This document shows positions 6,601-34,825 of a stretch of 64,000 nucleotides of DNA, piece after piece. This stretch comes from Alphaproteobacteria bacterium. GTDB taxonomy: Bacteria > Pseudomonadota > Alphaproteobacteria > SHVV01. Below the pieces are notes generated by a model, which saw only the letters and a list, made by a program, of their open reading frames with translations, did no database searches and was not told where the DNA came from. The stretch is from the NCBI GenBank assembly GCA_965261735.1, contig OZ253470.1, positions 1,536,001 through 1,600,000 on the forward strand, in the 5' to 3' direction. The translations under genes were made by a program, and so were the position numbers. The first letter of the stretch is position 1. Each line of letters opens with the position of its first letter.

Positions 6601-7973
6601 CAGGCTGCTGAAAAAGTCATCATTGCCGGGCCTTGAACTCGGATTCATCGCCGAAATGAAATGAGATTTCGTGTCTTAGGGTGAAACCGTCTTCAATCTC
6701 GACCGATCCGATGCCCTGGGCTTCGTCCAGTTCGATGATCTACCACTTTGCGGTCAGCGGCGTGCCGGCATCGCCCGTCATGTTGGCGCCTCCGCCAGCA
6801 GTCTGGGTAGTCGGACGAGGTTGTAGGCGGCCAAGGCCAGGGTGAACGAAGCGTCGACCCGGTGGCGGCCCCGGAATTTGGTCTTGCTCAATCCCGCGCT
6901 CGTCTTGACCCAGCCGAAGACCTCCTCGATGCGCTTGCGGCAACGTTGGCTGACGCCGTAACCGGGATGGCGCGTCGTGCGCCCGTCTATCTTGGTCTTG
7001 CGCCGCTTGCCGGTCTTGGTGACGTGGTCCTGGACGGCGATATGGGGGGTCACCTTGCGGTGCCGCAGTTCCTCGACAAAATCCGCGACGTCAAAACCCT
7101 TGTCCCCGCCCACCGTGATCCGACGCCGCCCGCCTCTACTCTCCACCGGGCGATGCCTGTCGATCAGATCAAGGGCGGCTTCGCGTTCCGCCGTGCCCGA
7201 CGCAATGGTCACGCCGCCGCCGACTGCCAGACCATGGCGGTTCTCCGTCAGCGCATGGCCCATGTAACACAGCTTGCTTTCCCGGCCATTACCCTTGCGA
7301 TAAAGCCGGGCGTCCGGATCAGTGGTGCTTGCATGGGTCGCGTTCGAGCGTTTCTCGCCATGAAAATCCCGCGCGGCGTTGCGCCCCGATCCCCCGTCGC
7401 CATCGTCCTCACCTTTGGGACGAAAGCTCTTCATCGACGCCCAGGCCTCGATCAATGTTCCGTCTACCGAAAAATGATCCCGGCTCAATAGTCCCCCTAC
7501 CTTGTGGTGCTGGATAACCCCCGCAAGCAGCTGCCCCGAAACCTCCGCCTCCAGAAGACGGTCCCGGTTGTGGCAGAACGCGCTGGCGTCCCACACGCCA
7601 TCGTCCAGCCCAAGCCCCACAAACCAGCAAAACAGCATGTTGAAGTTTAGCTGCTCCATCAGCTGACGCTCCGAGCGGATCGAATAAAACGCCTGCAACA
7701 GTAACGCTCGAAGAAGCTTCTCCGGCGGGATCGATGGGCGACCCATGTGGGAATAAAGCGTCTCGAACTCCGAAGATAGAGACCCCAATACGTCGTTCAC
7801 GATCTCACGGATCAGACGCAGCGGATGATCATCCGGAACACGCTCTTCCAAGTCTACGTAGCTGAATAAATTGCCACTGCTTTGATCTCGACCCCGCATG
7901 CCATCCTCCATCACTCGAAGAAATCACAGAATCATGTCACAACTGCAAAGGCGAGGACTTTTTCAGCAGCCTG
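6601..7973 (-). mobile_element. IS5 family element, copy 1
   Basis: 18-bp perfect IRs CAGGCTGCTGAAAAAGTC / GACTTTTTCAGCAGCCTG; CTAG duplicated at 6597-6600 and 7974-7977. Confidence 0.95.
6778..7914 (-). CDS. IS5 family DDE transposase
   Basis: GRPSIPPEKLLRALLLQ, SVDGTLI, GDKGFD, RKRIEEVFGW. Confidence 0.93.
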   Translation of the reverse strand: MMEDGMRGRDQSSGNLFSYVDLEERVPDDHPLRLIREIVNDVLGSLSSEFETLYSHMGRPSIPPEKLLRALLLQAFYSIRSERQLMEQLNFNMLFCWFVGLGLDDGVWDASAFCHNRDRLLEAEVSGQLLAGVIQHHKVGGLLSRDHFSVDGTLIEAWASMKSFRPKGEDDGDGGSGRNAARDFHGEKRSNATHASTTDPDARLYRKGNGRESKLCYMGHALTENRHGLAVGGGVTIASGTAEREAALDLIDRHRPVESRGGRRRITVGGDKGFDVADFVEELRHRKVTPHIAVQDHVTKTGKRRKTKIDGRTTRHPGYGVSQRCRKRIEEVFGWVKTSAGLSKTKFRGRHRVDASFTLALAAYNLVRLPRLLAEAPT

Positions 7974-8524
7974 CTAGTGCGCTATTTTCGTATGTGAGCG
8001 AGCGCCTCGGCCGGGACCAGGTTCAGGCTTCCCGCGGCATCGCCCGGGCGCAACCAGAAGAGCTTGAGCGTCGAGGTGTTGCGCTTCTCGTAGTACAGGA
8101 TCGAGATCGGATACCAGCCGGCCTCGGCGATCGCGACCTCGACGGTGTCGGAATACTGGTCCGAGTGGACGAGAGGATCGTTGATTACCCGTTTGCCGCC
8201 GATGTTGACGCGCACCCCGTCATTGGACAGAGCCGCGAACGCGTAGGTGCCGGGCTCTTCGAAACGGATGAGGCCGCGGATGTCGGCACCGACGCCGTCG
8301 GTCTGGCTGCTCGACAGCACCTCGCCGGCACCGACCTTGTAATCGAGCACCGGCAACGGCCTTCCGACCTCGCCCTTCTCGTATTTCGCCCACTGCGAAA
8401 TCTCGTCCACATCGTTGAAGATCGAGTAGTAGTAGGTAACCGATGGGGTGGACGCCCCTCCCGACGGCATCGCGATGTGCCAGGTTGGCGGTGTTGTTAA
8501 CGCCAAGCGAGGAAGGGGGCGTCC

Positions 8525-9547
8525 ATGGAACAGGTTCACATGATCGGGATCGATCTGGCGAAGAACAGCTTTCAGCTGCACGGTGCGCGGGCGGATGGGT
8601 TGGTTGCGTTCCGCAAGAAGCTGAGCCGGGCGAAGCTGTTGGACTTTGTGGCTGCGCAGCCACGCTGCACGGTGGCGATGGAGGCGTGCGGCGGCGCGCA
8701 CCATTGGGGCCGGGAGATCGGCAGTCTCGGCCATGCGGTGCGACTGATCCCACCGATCTACGTCAAAGCGTACGTCAAGCGGCAAAAGAACGACGCGTCG
8801 GATGCGGAGGCGATCTGCGAGGCGTCGTCGCGGCCGACCATGCGCTTTGTGGCTGTGAAGACGGAGGAACAGCAGGCTCGGGGCATGCTGTTCCGGACGC
8901 GCGATCTTCTGGTGCGCCAGCGCACCCAGACGATTAATGCGCTGCGCGGCCATCTGGCGGAGTTCGGTGTCATTGCCCCGCAGGGGCCGGCTCATGTCGG
9001 CCGGCTGGCCTCGGCGCTTGAGGGACCGGCTTCGAGGTTGCCGGAAGCGGTCCGCGAGCTGGCCGGCCTTCTGCTTGAGCAGATCGCCGGCCTCGATGCG
9101 AAGATTGCGGGCCTGGAGAGGGAGGTCCACGTGAGAGCACGGCAGGATGAGGAGGCGAGGCGCCTGATGAGCGTGCCGGGGATCGGGCCGATCAGCGCGA
9201 TGGCAATCCAGGCCTTCGCACCGCCGATGGAGAGTTTCCGGCGCGGCCGCGACTTCTCCGCTTGGCTCGGCCTCGTGCCGCGCCAGCACACGACCGGCGG
9301 CAAGCCGAAGCTGGGCAAGATATCGAAGATGGGCCAGCGCGATCTGAGACGGCTGCTGATCACAGGCGCGATGACTGTGGTCCGCTGGGCGGTTCGGCGC
9401 GGCGTGACGACGGACCCCTGGCTGGCCGGGATGCTGGCGCGCAAGCCGAGGATGCTCGTCGCGGTGGCGCTGGCCAACAGGATGGCGCGCATCGTCTGGG
9501 CGCTACTGACGAAGAAGGAGAGCTACCGGGCTCCCGCCACCGCCTGA
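8525..9547 (+). CDS. IS110 family DEDD recombinase/transposase
   Basis: IGIDLAK, VAMEACG, KNDASDAEAI, SAWLGLVP, TTGGK. Confidence 0.95.
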   Translation: MEQVHMIGIDLAKNSFQLHGARADGLVAFRKKLSRAKLLDFVAAQPRCTVAMEACGGAHHWGREIGSLGHAVRLIPPIYVKAYVKRQKNDASDAEAICEASSRPTMRFVAVKTEEQQARGMLFRTRDLLVRQRTQTINALRGHLAEFGVIAPQGPAHVGRLASALEGPASRLPEAVRELAGLLLEQIAGLDAKIAGLEREVHVRARQDEEARRLMSVPGIGPISAMAIQAFAPPMESFRRGRDFSAWLGLVPRQHTTGGKPKLGKISKMGQRDLRRLLITGAMTVVRWAVRRGVTTDPWLAGMLARKPRMLVAVALANRMARIVWALLTKKESYRAPATA

Positions 9548-9790
9548 GAGAACGGCGAAGTGCGGGAAGCCGTCGGGGATGTGGGCACGACGGAGGACAG
9601 GTAAGGGCAAAGGTCAACGAGACCGGGTTGGGAAAACCAGCATCCGAACGGAGAGCTTTCAAGCTCGCGTAACCGATTTGGACCCAATCCGCGTATCTCC
9701 ATACGGGCCCGCGGCGTGTCATCTGCCGCATAGAGAGGCCGGACACACGACAGCACCTGACCGCATGCACCGAGCCGATCAAAAACTGCT
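9548..9790 (+). ncRNA. Putative bridge/seek RNA of IS1111-type element, copy 1; ends approximate
   Basis: Stem-flanked internal loops hold segments matching the target (CGAAC 9645-9649, CGTAACCG 9668-9675) and the donor junction (CCAT 9699-9702, ACACACG 9743-9749). Confidence 0.7.
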
Positions 9791-10119
9791 TGCATCAACG
9801 GGGGCGTCCACACACGATAAGCTGAGCACGAGGTTGGTGGCCGCCGGCTGCCGTTCGAGGGGCTTAAGCCCGGCCATGCCCTGGGCCCAAACCCCGCCCG
9901 TCGCGGCGAACGCGAGGAGGGCCCCCAAGGTAGCGGCCCGGGCGCCGCGAGAGCGGATGGGTGCCATGTCTCCTCTCCCTCTTTGGTCGCCCGGCCGTCT
10001 TGCGCGGCAGGTGCCGTAAACTATAGCGATCGGTCCTCCGCCGTGCCAGTGGGCCAACGGAGATGGTGACAGCGCTGCGGACGCATTAGGGTAGTAAGAG
10101 GGGGGGTAGCGTTTTCCCC

Positions 10120-10795: not shown

Positions 10796-11561
10796 TCGCG
10801 CCGCCCTCGCTCGACTGGCTCTACTACCTGCGCGAGGCGAGGGACGGCGCAGCTTAAGGCCGTCGCCGTTCGCGTAGCTGCGGCATCCTGAGGAAGCGCT
10901 CCACGTCAGCCTCGGTAGGTTTTCCCCTGATTGTCTTGCAGTAGTAGCAGCCCGACTGCGGTTCATCCGTCACCACAACCACCTTGGAATCATGTCCTCG
11001 ATATTCAATCCACAGGGTGGCCGAACGCATCCCTGTTACCGCAACCATGAATTCAGCTGCGGCGAGCGAGGCAATGACGCCGTTCGCGGGTGAGACTGAT
11101 GGACCTGTCTGCACAAGCGCTTCCTTGGCAACCCCGTAAGTTGAGGCCCTTGCGGCCTGCTCCGCATCGGCCTCAAGGTAGTTAGGGACATCGTTCTGAT
11201 CTAGAAGTTCGAGGCATTGAAGGCAGGCGGCCCCGTCAGATACCAGGCAGACCCTACCACCGTAGACACCCGACTCGGGGACATCAGAAGCGAGGTCGAT
11301 GAGCGGCCTTGCGTAGGCGACGCAGAGCTCATTTAGAATGGCCCTCGGACCGTCTTCGTCAAGGCATCCAAATACCCAGTCCGCAGCTTTGACTGCGGCA
11401 AACGCTTCTTCGCTGACTAGGCTGGATTTGATTTCGAGGGCGTCAATCTCAGGATTGATTTCCCGGATCATCCCCGCTGCGATTGACACTTTGGCGCTTC
11501 CCGGCACCTGATCGTCGTATCGGGCGCCGACGAACCGTGTGTGGACGCCCCCGTTGATGCA

Positions 11562-11804
11562 AGCAGTTTTTGGTCGGCTCGGTGCATGCGGTCAGGTGCT
11601 GTCGTGTGTCCGGCCTCTCTATGCGGCAGATGACACGCCGCGGGCCCGTATGGAGATACGCGGATTGGGTCCAAATCGGTTACGCGAGCTTGAAAGCTCT
11701 CCGTTCGGATGCTGGTTTTCCCAACCCGGTCTCGTTGACCTTTGCCCTTACCTGTCCTCCGTCCTGCCCACATCCCCGACGGCTTCCCGCACTTCGCCGT
11801 TCTC
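11562..11804 (-). ncRNA. Putative bridge/seek RNA, copy 2; ends approximate
   Basis: Same right-end sequence as copy 1; putative guide segments unchanged. Confidence 0.7.
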
Positions 11805-12827
11805 TCAGGCGGTGGCGGGAGCCCGGTAGCTCTTCTTCTTCGTCAGTAGCGCCCAGACGATGCGCGCCATCCTGTTGGCCAGCGCCACCGCGACGAGCAT
11901 CCTCGGCTTGCGCGCCAGCATCCCGGCCAGCCAGGGGTCCGTCGTCACGCCGCGCCGAACCGCCCAGCGGACCACAGTCATCGCGCCTGTGATCAGCAGC
12001 CGTCTCAGATCGCGCTGGCCCATCTTCGATATCTTGCCCAGCTTCGGCTTGCCGCCGGTCGTGTGCTGGCGCGGCACGAGGCCGAGCCAAGCGGAGAAGT
12101 CGCGGCCGCGCCGGAAACTCTCCATCGGCGGTGCGAAGGCCTGGATTGCCATCGCGCTGATCGGCCCGATCCCCGGCACGCTCATCAGGCGCCTCGCCTC
12201 CTCATCCTGCCGTGCTCTCACGTGGACCTCCCTCTCCAGGCCCGCAATCTTCGCATCGAGGCCGGCGATCTGCTCAAGCAGAAGGCCGGCCAGCTCGCGG
12301 ACCGCTTCCGGCAACCTCGAAGCCGGTCCCTCAAGCGCCGAGGCCAGCCGGCCGACATGAGCCGGCCCCTGCGGGGCAATGACACCGAACTCCGCCAGAT
12401 GGCCGCGCAGCGCATTAATCGTCTGGGTGCGCTGGCGCACCAGAAGATCGCGCGTCCGGAACAGCATGCCCCGAGCCTGCTGTTCCTCCGTCTTCACAGC
12501 CACAAAGCGCATGGTCGGCCGCGACGACGCCTCGCAGATCGCCTCCGCATCCGACGCGTCGTTCTTTTGCCGCTTGACGTACGCTTTGACGTAGATCGGT
12601 GGGACCAGTCGCACCGCATGGCCGAGACTGCCGATCTCCCGGCCCCAATGGTGCGCGCCGCCGCACGCCTCCATCGCCACCGTGCAGCGTGGCTGCGCAG
12701 CCACAAAGTCCAACAGCTTCGCCCGGCTCAGCTTCTTGCGGAACGCAACCAACCCATCCGCCCGCGCACCGTGCAGCTGAAAGCTGTTCTTCGCCAGATC
12801 GATCCCGATCATGTGAACCTGTTCCAT
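11805..12827 (-). CDS. IS110 family DEDD recombinase/transposase
   Basis: 340 aa, two substitutions relative to copy 1. Confidence 0.95.
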   Translation of the reverse strand: MEQVHMIGIDLAKNSFQLHGARADGLVAFRKKLSRAKLLDFVAAQPRCTVAMEACGGAHHWGREIGSLGHAVRLVPPIYVKAYVKRQKNDASDAEAICEASSRPTMRFVAVKTEEQQARGMLFRTRDLLVRQRTQTINALRGHLAEFGVIAPQGPAHVGRLASALEGPASRLPEAVRELAGLLLEQIAGLDAKIAGLEREVHVRARQDEEARRLMSVPGIGPISAMAIQAFAPPMESFRRGRDFSAWLGLVPRQHTTGGKPKLGKISKMGQRDLRRLLITGAMTVVRWAVRRGVTTDPWLAGMLARKPRMLVAVALANRMARIVWALLTKKKSYRAPATA

Positions 12828-13168
12828 GGACGCCCCCTTCCTCGCTTGGCGTTAACAACACCGCCAACCTGGCACATCGCGATGCCGTCGGGAGGGGCGT
12901 CCACCCCATCGGTTGCGGCTCGTCTCATCCAGTTCGTCATCATCGATCAGCGCTGCTTCACCAATGCCGAGCAGCGCTAGGTGTTGCACCAGCGGACTCC
13001 CCAGGCCCCCGACGCCCACGACGGCCACCTTTGTTTGCCGTATCTTCCGCTGCCCTTCATTGCCAAACAGCCGAGCGTTACGATCGTAACGCTCGGGCAA
13101 AGGGGTCATCCCCAACCCTCAAGAGAGTTGTTTCTCGCCTATCCGGTTTACACCCACACCCACTAGGG

Positions 13169-34263: not shown

Positions 34264-34825
34264 TGACTGTCCCAGACAACCAAGTTTGGAAGTTATCAGA
34301 GAACAGGATCGTTTGATCGCGCATTTTGTTGCCGGCACGACAGCACGAACGGCAGCGCGTCTATGTGGTCTGAACCGCAAGACGGAGGCTTTCTATTTCC
34401 ACCGGCTTCGCGAGATCATCGCCCTTGAGCTGGTCGTTCTTGCCGTGCATGAGTTCTGGTCGGGTCGGTCTTCCGTTCGGCCGGTTTCGACTGCACGGAC
34501 GCTTTCATTCGAAGCTCTTGCCCACGAGCCGGGATCGTCGGGTCGCGTCTTCGTTCCCGATGAGAATGCGCTGGCAGATCTGCTGCTCAAGATCGAGGAG
34601 GCAAACCGCGGCTCGGCAGGATATCGAAGATGGGCCAGCGCGATCTCAAGTGCCTCATGATCACGGGCGCCATGGCTGTCGTCAACTGGGCCGTCCGGCG
34701 CGACGAGACGACGGACCCCTGGCTGGACAGGGAGGCCCGTGGTTGCGCGATCTGGAGATCATGGACAAGGCGACCCATCCGCCGCCACGCTGCAAGGAGG
34801 GCGCTTTGGTCGAGGCGATGCAACA
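34264..34825 (+). pseudogene. Mosaic of gene fragments (IS1016-like transposase, DUF4007-like, IS110 transposase, topoisomerase III-like)
   Basis: QDRLIAHFVAGTTARTAA...FYFHRLREII; TLSFEALAHEPGSSGRVF..DENALADLL; ISKMGQRDL..LMITGAM (aligns to 9320-9425); DKATHPPPR..EGALVEAMQ. Confidence 0.55.

Follow-up and report, generated by a model that had tools for sequence, protein, structure and literature searches.

Does the non-coding DNA that follows a transposase gene in an alphaproteobacterial genome encode a guide RNA, and what would that RNA read? The question is raised by a 64,000-nt stretch of contig OZ253470.1 (GCA_965261735.1, lineage SHVV01; positions 1,536,001 to 1,600,000, hereafter the window), which carries 2 copies of the same insertion sequence (IS). 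That IS110 and IS1111 elements recombine under the guidance of RNA has been known since 2024, and the principle is thus an established one. An earlier note, made from the letters of the window alone, had proposed that the 3' non-coding end of this IS1111-type element specifies a bispecific guide RNA acting on a CG core. We consider this reading very likely to be correct, and it is supported by covariation between guides and flanks, by a right-end guide that follows the element's own terminus, by covarying stems, and by the layout of published relatives.

The element at 8443-9816 is an insertion sequence of the IS1111 group, active-looking and of the RNA-guided kind already known. As described for the group, its members have a DEDD (RuvC-like) transposase of 330-350 aa with a C-terminal PF02371 domain and the motif GL-P----S/TG, subterminal repeats of ~11-13 bp with extensions of 7 bp on the left and 3 bp on the right, and a longer non-coding region 3' of the transposase gene. 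Here, the inverted repeats of copy 1 are subterminal and 11 bp long, with extensions of CG plus ATGGG on the left and ACA on the right (i.e. 7 and 3 bp with the CG counted to the left end, a convention of Hall under which copy 1 spans 8441-9814). The gene is preceded by only 82 nt (8443-8524) vs 269 nt of non-coding DNA downstream (9548-9816), and the protein has the expected length and motif (Table 1). A profile search recovers PF01548 (5.9e-15) and PF02371 (4e-22), and the transposase scores 319 bits against NF033542, "IS110 family RNA-guided transposase" (cut-off 140). Its closest solved structures are those of IS621 (8wt6) and ISCro4 (9t56), with sequence matches at E = 5e-10 and 5e-13. 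The family is very large, with at least 7997 homologues at E <= 1e-30 among 8000 candidates scored; the homologue search returned no ISfinder name, the sole names being "IS110 family transposase", and the element is apparently a new, unnamed IS1111 member. For comparison we used 80 loci from other genomes whose transposases are 66-99% identical. The segment TGGACGCC of the left repeat is kept in 77 of these, while L070 and L110 differ after TGGACG and L105 has no match.

The genome searched, a single 5.03-Mb contig with 66% G+C, harbors 3 lineages of the element. Lineage A, to which both window copies belong, has 14 full copies with 99.3-100% identity and identical guides, 13 with an intact 340-aa frame and 1 with the frame split in two pieces. 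Lineage B has 5 copies, including a variant (B5), at 80-82% identity to lineage A and with transposases that are 80-81% identical, and lineage C has ~10 copies with a transposase that is ~51% identical. All 14 lineage A copies have a left flank ending in CCG, a right terminus ...CACACACG, and CG at both junctions, while both junctions read TG in lineages B and C. Two lineage A copies (3617003 and 3603581) are a segmental duplicate in inverted orientation, with a common flank of 312 nt on the left and 1345 nt on the right, so that 13 independent pairs of left and right flanks remain. Assembled contigs from 4 metatranscriptome runs of 2 studies cover the element, and one of them, from run X1, fixes the boundaries of copy 1. 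In this contig, 8440 is followed directly by 9815, with exactly 1374 bases left out, which means that the boundaries are exact and that the insertion is polymorphic. Together with the logo of the 13 sites, this empty-site contig indicates that insertion is specific for site and orientation, with no target duplication beyond the shared core. Pfam searches on the separate gene pieces show that copy 1 splits a PA14-domain gene and copy 2 a ThiF-family gene (profile positions 1-58 on one side, 71-207 on the other), so the earlier statement that the element disrupts ordinary genes is true for both. Long open frames across the rejoined sites were discarded as uninformative in a genome of this G+C content.

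The non-coding end carries 4 guide-like segments, 2 for the target and 2 for the ends of the element (Table 1). The matches recognized in the earlier note (CGAAC at 9645-9649, CGTAACCG at 9668-9675, CCAT at 9699-9702, and ACACACG at 9743-9749), together with its stem and 2 hairpins, lie exactly where it placed them, and the targets it rebuilt, TAGGTAAC-CG-ATAAG for copy 1 and GCCGCAAC-CG-GTTCG for copy 2, are right. Its right-flank guide is correctly located, but its register is off by one, the first flank G being in fact the second base of the core; its proposed target near CGTAAC-CG-GTTCG therefore has the right type of site with one G too many, and the ideal site reads CGTAAC-CG-TTCGG. This register agrees with the bases directly after the core, which are TTCG at 5 independent sites (6 of the 14 copies) vs GTTCG at 2 and GTTGA at 1, and with the related locus L033, which also has TTCG. 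It agrees as well with loose contig ends at 9816, which read TTCGG... in runs X2 and X5, and with other sites in X1 and X5 that share GTAACCG on the left. The 2 target guides overlap on CCG in the target. In lineage A and most relatives, the 5' guide uses its last 3 bases to pair with position -3 plus core, while its register is shifted by one or two bases in 11 loci (e.g. L094).

We compared these motifs with 20,000 dinucleotide-preserving shuffles of 9548-9816, requiring CGAACG no more than 40 nt 5' of GTAACCG, plus ACACACG. None of the shuffles contains all 3 motifs together. Singly, GTAACCG occurs in 258, CGAACG in 4622, and ACACACG in 1427, and the ordered pair in 11.

Stronger evidence than motif counts is whether guides change together with targets. 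An alignment of the right ends of lineages A, B, and B5 reveals a conserved scaffold with differences only at the proposed guide positions. In lineage A, the 5' guide CCGAACGG (reverse complement CCGTTCGG) and the 3' guide CGCGTAACCG face flanks ..[T/C]AACCG and TTCG... The guides of lineage B are GTGGTACA (reverse complement TGTACCAC) and CGCAAAAATG, with flanks ..GCAAAAATG and (TG)TACCAC; those of B5 are GGGTCAA (reverse complement TTGACCC) and CAAAATTG, with flanks ..CAAAATTG and (TG)ACCCC. Lineage C, though much more distant, has the same layout, with a 5' guide GGCATTGTC, a hairpin, and a 3' guide GTTAGTCTG, and flanks ..GTTAGTCTG on the left and ACAATGCC on the right. Each guide set of lineages B, B5, and C matches its own flanks, and the core changes in step, being CG in A and TG in B and C, in guides and junctions alike.

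The same holds among the relatives. Both ends could be called from the repeat motifs in 66 of the 80 loci (14 lacked a motif where one was expected and were excluded), and these loci provided 40 guide classes, reduced to 39 before the test by removal of the class of 2 loci with mis-called right ends (L063 and L100). Against its own left flank, the 3' guide has a mean core-anchored run of 6.79 vs 2.03 for non-cognate flanks, and the longest run of the 5' guide against its own target averages 6.67 vs 2.78. Neither cognate mean is reached in any of 10,000 guide/flank permutations. Because the flanks lie outside the element, shared descent of the elements cannot yield this signal. For example, in L033 (transposase 96% identical), a single guide base has changed, AACCG to AAGCG, and the left flank has changed likewise. 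Covariation across homologs, which the earlier note had named as a check, is present in the 4 guide sets of the genome as in the 39 classes, and these sequence comparisons support the view that guides change together with their targets, i.e. natural reprogramming.

Some loci depart from a uniform core. In L043, L044, and L099, the left junction is CG and the right junction CA, with a CA core in the 5' guide and CG in the 3' and right-end guides; in L103, the right junction is CA, yet the core of the 5' guide reads CG. This suggests that the 2 target arms can specify different core bases, which the junctions inherit asymmetrically. In L071 and L092, a second IS of the same family (ATGGAGTGGACGCC...) lies inside the non-coding end of the first, after GAGGCC, between donor hairpin and right-end guide, and L103 abuts sequence from the non-coding end of another copy. 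The assemblies of the related loci (L031-L110) are labeled Alphaproteobacteria, Binatia, Longimicrobiales/Gemmatimonadetes, Acidobacteria, Vicinamibacterales, Nitrospinota, Chloroflexota, and Gammaproteobacteria. Given that the transposases remain 66-99% identical across those phyla, the family must have moved between them while keeping one RNA scaffold.

The element's own ends provide a second comparison. The right-end guide equals the right end of its own element plus core in 59 of the 66 loci, in 9 variants (ATAGACG, ACAGATG, ACATACG, ATGCACG, ATAGATG, ATGTACG, ATATACG, ATACACG, and ACACACG) that differ at 4 positions. Among the remaining 7 loci, 5 differ at one base and 2 are the mis-called ends. 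In lineages B and C, this guide reads ACAGATG and ATACATG, respectively, with the matching end in each. This supports the view, drawn from sequence comparison, that the IS1111 RNA also reads the right end of the element. On the left, the CCAT proposed earlier as a guide holds as to position and is extended here to CTCCAT (9697-9702), although its pairing with the left end remains putative.

We examined the RNA structure in 42 distinct sequences, using the stems of the earlier note plus a GGTC/GACC closing helix. Overall, 96.5% of 1176 cells are paired and 9 of 28 pairs change on both sides, a result that none of 500 shuffles reaches and that compares with 25-48% in slid controls. The target-module stem is the best supported helix, followed by the small hairpin between the guides, in which pair 52:68 is AU in 16 sequences, GC in 14, UA in 5, GU in 2, and CG in 1. 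Consensus folding (alifold) of the complete non-coding end in 27 sequences adds an outer long-range helix that encloses the whole RNA and went unseen in the earlier note; it is 98.4% paired, 3 of its pairs change on both sides, and 0 of 500 shuffles reach it on 3 of 5 measures (slid controls, 28-45%). G.U pairs are frequent and, read on the opposite strand, would become A.C mismatches, so that the fold belongs to the + (transposase-sense) strand and is RNA-like. The resulting extents, 9612-9762 (151 nt) and 9624-9691 (68 nt), are close to the published forms of 145-170 and 70-100 nt. In the Longimicrobiales subset, alifold confirms GGTC/GACC, with a covarying fifth pair, and instead pairs a neighboring 5' block with the right repeat; as such, the outermost pairing predicted here may differ between clades. 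A small hairpin (ACGGC...GCCGT) directly 3' of the stop codon (9548-9577) is variable in sequence among relatives, and a conserved purine-rich block at 9578-9611 is only partly accounted for by the outer helix.

Table 1. Positions of the insertion sequence, its guide segments, and its helices in the window.
Feature	Positions	Strand	Details
Core dinucleotide CG, left junction	8441-8442	+	Second copy at 9815-9816
IS1111-group IS, copy 1	8443-9816	+	1374 bp including the right-hand CG; flanks diverge exactly here
Left subterminal inverted repeat	8448-8458	+	GTGGACGCCCC; terminal extension ATGGG before it; reverse complement of 9801-9811
Transposase/recombinase gene	8525-9547	+	340 aa; motif GLVPRQHTTG
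Outer long-range helix, 9 bp (predicted)	9578-9586 with 9788-9796	+	5' strand GATGTGGGC; alifold on 27 sequences
Inner closing helix	9612-9615 with 9759-9762	+	GGTC with GACC; 96.4% paired (42 sequences), almost invariant
Target-module stem	9624-9632 with 9683-9691	+	CGGGTTGGG with CCCAATCCG; 6/9 pairs change on both sides, 92.6% paired
Top-strand target guide (5')	9644-9651	+	CCGAACGG; pairs with C + CG core + TTCGG; weaker pairing may reach 9641
Hairpin between target guides	9653-9666	+	GAGCT-TTCA-AGCTC; 97.6% paired
Bottom-strand target guide (3')	9666-9675	+	CGCGTAACCG; same sense as left flank plus core
Left-end donor guide (putative)	9697-9702	+	CTCCAT; pairs with ATGGGG via one G.U, pattern WWWWwW
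Donor hairpin	9706-9740	+	GGCC 9706-9709 with GGCC 9737-9740; GCGGC 9711-9715 with GCCGC 9725-9729
Right-end donor guide	9743-9749	+	ACACACG; right terminal extension plus core
Outer helix, 3' strand	9788-9796	+	GCTTGCATC (pairing form GCUUGCAUC); contains conserved TTGCAT box
Right subterminal inverted repeat	9801-9811	+	GGGGCGTCCAC; then extension ACA and core CG
IS copy 2, same IS, identical guides	11536-12909	-	Inside ThiF-family gene

Given the predicted guides, we wondered how closely the element follows them in its own genome. In the flank logo of the 13 independent lineage A sites, CCG at -3..-1 and A at -5 are present in all 13, and A at -4, G at -7, and T at +2 in 11 each. The guides match at 6 or more of 10 positions at 12 of the 13 sites, vs 3.3% of the 372,908 CCG sites in the genome, so the other insertion sites do resemble the target predicted from the guides, as the earlier note had expected of a flank logo. 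The ideal site CGTAAC-CG-TTCGG has 0 occurrences in the genome, as has the 10-mer TAACCGTTCG, while AACCGTTCG has 32 unoccupied ones. The absence of the ideal site means that the element has landed at near-cognate sites, often within genes. With G.U counted, the left arm pairs fully over -7..-1 at 9 of the 13 sites, and a U.G wobble accounts for the C often seen at -6. Two further sites have 7 contiguous pairs with the right arm and one has 6 in a register shifted by one base; at least one arm is fully paired at 12 of 13 sites. The targeting had been described as left-guide-dominated, which is true at 9 sites, but 3 others pair with the right arm instead, and "either arm plus CCG core" describes the sites better. 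A trade-off between the 2 arms is not significant (Spearman -0.24 to -0.38, P = 0.2-0.44, n = 13).

Taken as a mechanism, the RNA would be co-transcribed with the transposase gene, and the 3' non-coding end would fold into an RNA of ~150-220 nt, spanning at least 9612-9762 and probably 9578-9796. In the target module, the covarying stem would hold an internal loop whose arms are separated by the small hairpin, with the 5' arm CCGAACGG pairing with the top strand of the target (C-CG-TTCGG) and the 3' arm CGCGTAACCG with the bottom strand (CGCGTAAC-CG), so that both arms would cover the crossover CCG. In the donor module, the GGCC/GCGGC hairpin would lie between CUCCAU, predicted to pair with the left end ATGGGG, and ACACACG in right-end sense. 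The RNA-bound DEDD recombinase would then bring the circularized IS (...CCACACA-CG-ATGGGG..., its junction being expected as ...GTCCACACA-CG-ATGGGGTGGAC...) to a target that fits the guides, with strand exchange at the CG core. By analogy with published relatives, we infer that this RNA is produced, bound by the protein, and required.

Metatranscriptome contigs extend over the non-coding end at 9475-9762 (X1), 9630-9762 (X2), and 9621-9732 (X6). In X1 and X2, the depth is higher over the non-coding end than over the gene. This is no measure of relative expression, given that the depths are those of contigs and that community relatives have the stretch in common; the uncovered parts (e.g. 8356-8411, and 9308-9419 in X1) likewise prove nothing. 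The X2 contig at 9630-9762, which has no differences, is the deepest among the X2 contigs listed. The X1 and X2 contigs, from one study, both end at 9762, the last base of the GACC strand, which is at most a hint of a 3' end and may equally be an assembly break. Runs X7-X14 and X21, some of them labeled "sponge metagenome", have only small shares and are no evidence either way.

Several observations weigh against the guide RNA as drawn here. The region is covered by assembled contigs only, of a multi-copy IS and with no silent control stretch, which is no direct proof of RNA, and the circle junction is not among the contig joints listed. A promoter scan found no sigma-70-like promoter inside the linear IS; a promoter-free IS agrees, on the other hand, with the published view that transcription starts from a promoter formed at the circle junction. 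By eye, TTGCAT, which we take to be a possible -35 box, a 17-nt spacer, and CACGAT across the inferred junction fit ~6 of 12 consensus positions, and we make no claim for them. An Rfam search of the element returned no family at threshold (best 22.3 bits, E = 0.3); its 8 matches at E up to 10 were rejected as chance-level. The single-sequence fold of 9606-9772 shows the target module, but its energy is ordinary (z = -1.16), with 25 of 200 shuffles folding at least as well. The donor hairpin is 98-100% paired in the 42 sequences and nearly invariant, with only one pair changing on both sides, and GGTC of the inner closing helix has a predicted alternative partner in GGCC at 9706-9709. At the left end, ATGG/CCAT is almost invariant in the relatives and positions 5-6 show no covariation. 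Among the insertion sites, the right arm is matched at only 2-3 of 5 positions in 5 of 13, including copy 1, whose poor fit to the right guide had been noticed earlier. At 3 sites, the right-arm match is shifted by one base and forms a palindrome (AACCGGTT), and site 3635946 fits neither arm well, although its right flank may have been exchanged by rearrangement.

Could the matches be chance similarity in a G+C-rich non-coding stretch? Short motifs are common, as the frequency of CGAACG in shuffled sequence illustrates, but the full combination never arises there, no permutation reproduces the guide-flank match, and the match follows every natural guide change, which leaves chance with a negligible probability. 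A more specific alternative is that the guide-like segments act as DNA, i.e. as single-stranded DNA guides of the IS200/IS605 kind or as protein-binding sites, with no RNA involved. All the evidence is indeed DNA sequence; the contigs fall short of proving transcription, and the promoter scan found none within the element. Yet G.U switching occurs in 14 and 15 of the 42 sequences at 2 pairs, and 3 wobble pairs lie in the outer helix, on the + strand only, as is typical of RNA; moreover, RNA from the non-coding region of relatives co-purifies with the transposase, is required, and can be reprogrammed, and NCBIfam places the protein in an RNA-guided equivalog. We therefore regard a DNA-only function as very unlikely.

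It is also conceivable that only the target module guides, as a short seekRNA, and that CCAT and ACACACG are a pseudo-end or protein motif, the ends being read by the protein via the repeats. In ISEc11, a short 82-nt RNA with the target regions sufficed for transposition, and the authors state that what binds the IS ends is not known (PMC11187229); here, CCAT/ATGG never varies and the donor hairpin is nearly invariant. What argues otherwise is the segment at 9743-9749, which follows right end plus core through its 9 variants in 59 of 66 loci and also in lineages B and C, while a protein motif has no need to copy the terminal extension. Donor-binding nucleotides have also been predicted in IS1111 RNAs (PMC11208160). 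On balance, a target-only guide is unlikely, and the bispecific RNA remains the reading we prefer. A further proposal goes beyond it and is held only tentatively: in living cells, this IS1111 recombinase may need no more than the crossover CCG and one fully paired target arm (~7 bp), and the whole RNA may be clamped by the covarying long-range helix, which uses the conserved GCTTGCAT box beside the right repeat.

Among known systems, the closest are the IS1111 elements with seekRNAs. In 4 of them (ISEc11, ISKpn4, ISPst6, and ISPa11), a 3' non-coding RNA co-purifies with the transposase, is essential, and can be reprogrammed, and the seekRNA carries the top-strand match on its 5' side and the bottom-strand match on its 3' side (Siddiquee et al. 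2024, PMC11187229). As described there, the present element shares the non-coding region downstream of a ~340-aa transposase, the subterminal repeats with extensions of 7 bp on the left and 3 bp on the right, the overlapping target matches of a 5' top-strand and a 3' bottom-strand segment, and an exchange of guides on a conserved stem like that between ISEc11 and ISXne4. A CG likewise follows the insertion point in several such elements (PMC13604230, Table 1). By contrast, the present element has other guides (target CGTAAC-CG-TTCGG), has no perfect target in its host, and sits at near-cognate places in genes rather than in a repeat. The donor module and the outer 9-bp helix do not appear in the sections of PMC11187229 compared here, although its supplementary folds of the long seekRNAs, or the predicted bridge RNAs tabulated with PMC11208160, may show them. 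The seekRNA elements were tested at the bench, while this one is known from sequence alone.

For 93% of IS1111 elements, bridge RNAs have been predicted, located in the right end and often with their donor-binding bases in a multiloop (Durrant et al. 2024, PMC11208160), a description that the donor segments around the hairpin here fit. The bridge RNA of IS621 and the IS110 group, as that paper describes it, shares with the present system a DEDD recombinase with PF02371 and a bispecific RNA whose target and donor guides address both strands around a 2-nt core. Unlike it, the present RNA is located at the 3' end, not the 5' end, and has its top- and bottom-strand guides in the opposite order. 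Its donor guides are short (~6 and 7 nt) and lie on either side of a hairpin instead of in a simple internal loop, and the element has long subterminal repeats (11 bp). Likened by description, ISPpu9 of Pseudomonas putida is also an IS110-family element with a small RNA gene (Ssr9) downstream of the transposase and extra RNA copies elsewhere, but it inserts into REP sequences (PMC12288879). The counterpart here is a set of remnants that keep the RNA and the right end but no transposase gene.

A covariance model built from the RNA alignment finds 40 matches in the genome, some of which have no adjoining transposase gene. At two of them (1967408 and 2960509), just the RNA and a right end are present, and the guides fit the flank next to them; a B5-like RNA at 4368730 lacks a right end but has a left repeat 203 nt upstream. 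The lineage B loci are at 439468, 3421883, 4173239, 4347340, and 647577 (G000:C1), and lineage C is found at, e.g. 2942715-2943716. Four lineage B copies lie in a short repeat with flank homology of ~50-60 nt on the left and ~80 nt on the right, and a target-motif search found no unoccupied exact lineage B target left in the genome. Between 3,602,209 and 3,635,946, 4 lineage A copies lie within 34 kb in what looks like a rearranged, IS-rich region, where copy 3635946 has only 72 nt of left flank in common with the duplicate pair and an unrelated right flank. Elsewhere in the window, a related element has left a 140-bp remnant at 34597-34736, which matches IS positions 854-992 in the transposase gene with 81% identity, and a 378-aa open frame beside copy 1 (6778-7914, minus strand) has a translation that resembles a DDE-type transposase.

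What this family offers is a case of natural reprogramming, in which transposases that are 66-99% identical use one RNA scaffold with ~40 guide pairs, and 3 lineages in one genome each keep their own target. Reading of the right end by the RNA, left open in the seekRNA paper (PMC11187229) and only predicted in the bridge-RNA paper (PMC11208160), here gains comparative support. For annotation, the finding accounts for 14 insertions, many of them in genes, and for ~40 RNA-model matches. The insertion sites are, in addition, a natural record of how an IS1111 element behaves without a perfect site, which bears on specificity in genome editing; if the tentative one-arm rule is true, it would be a natural off-target rule for IS1111-type bridge recombinases.

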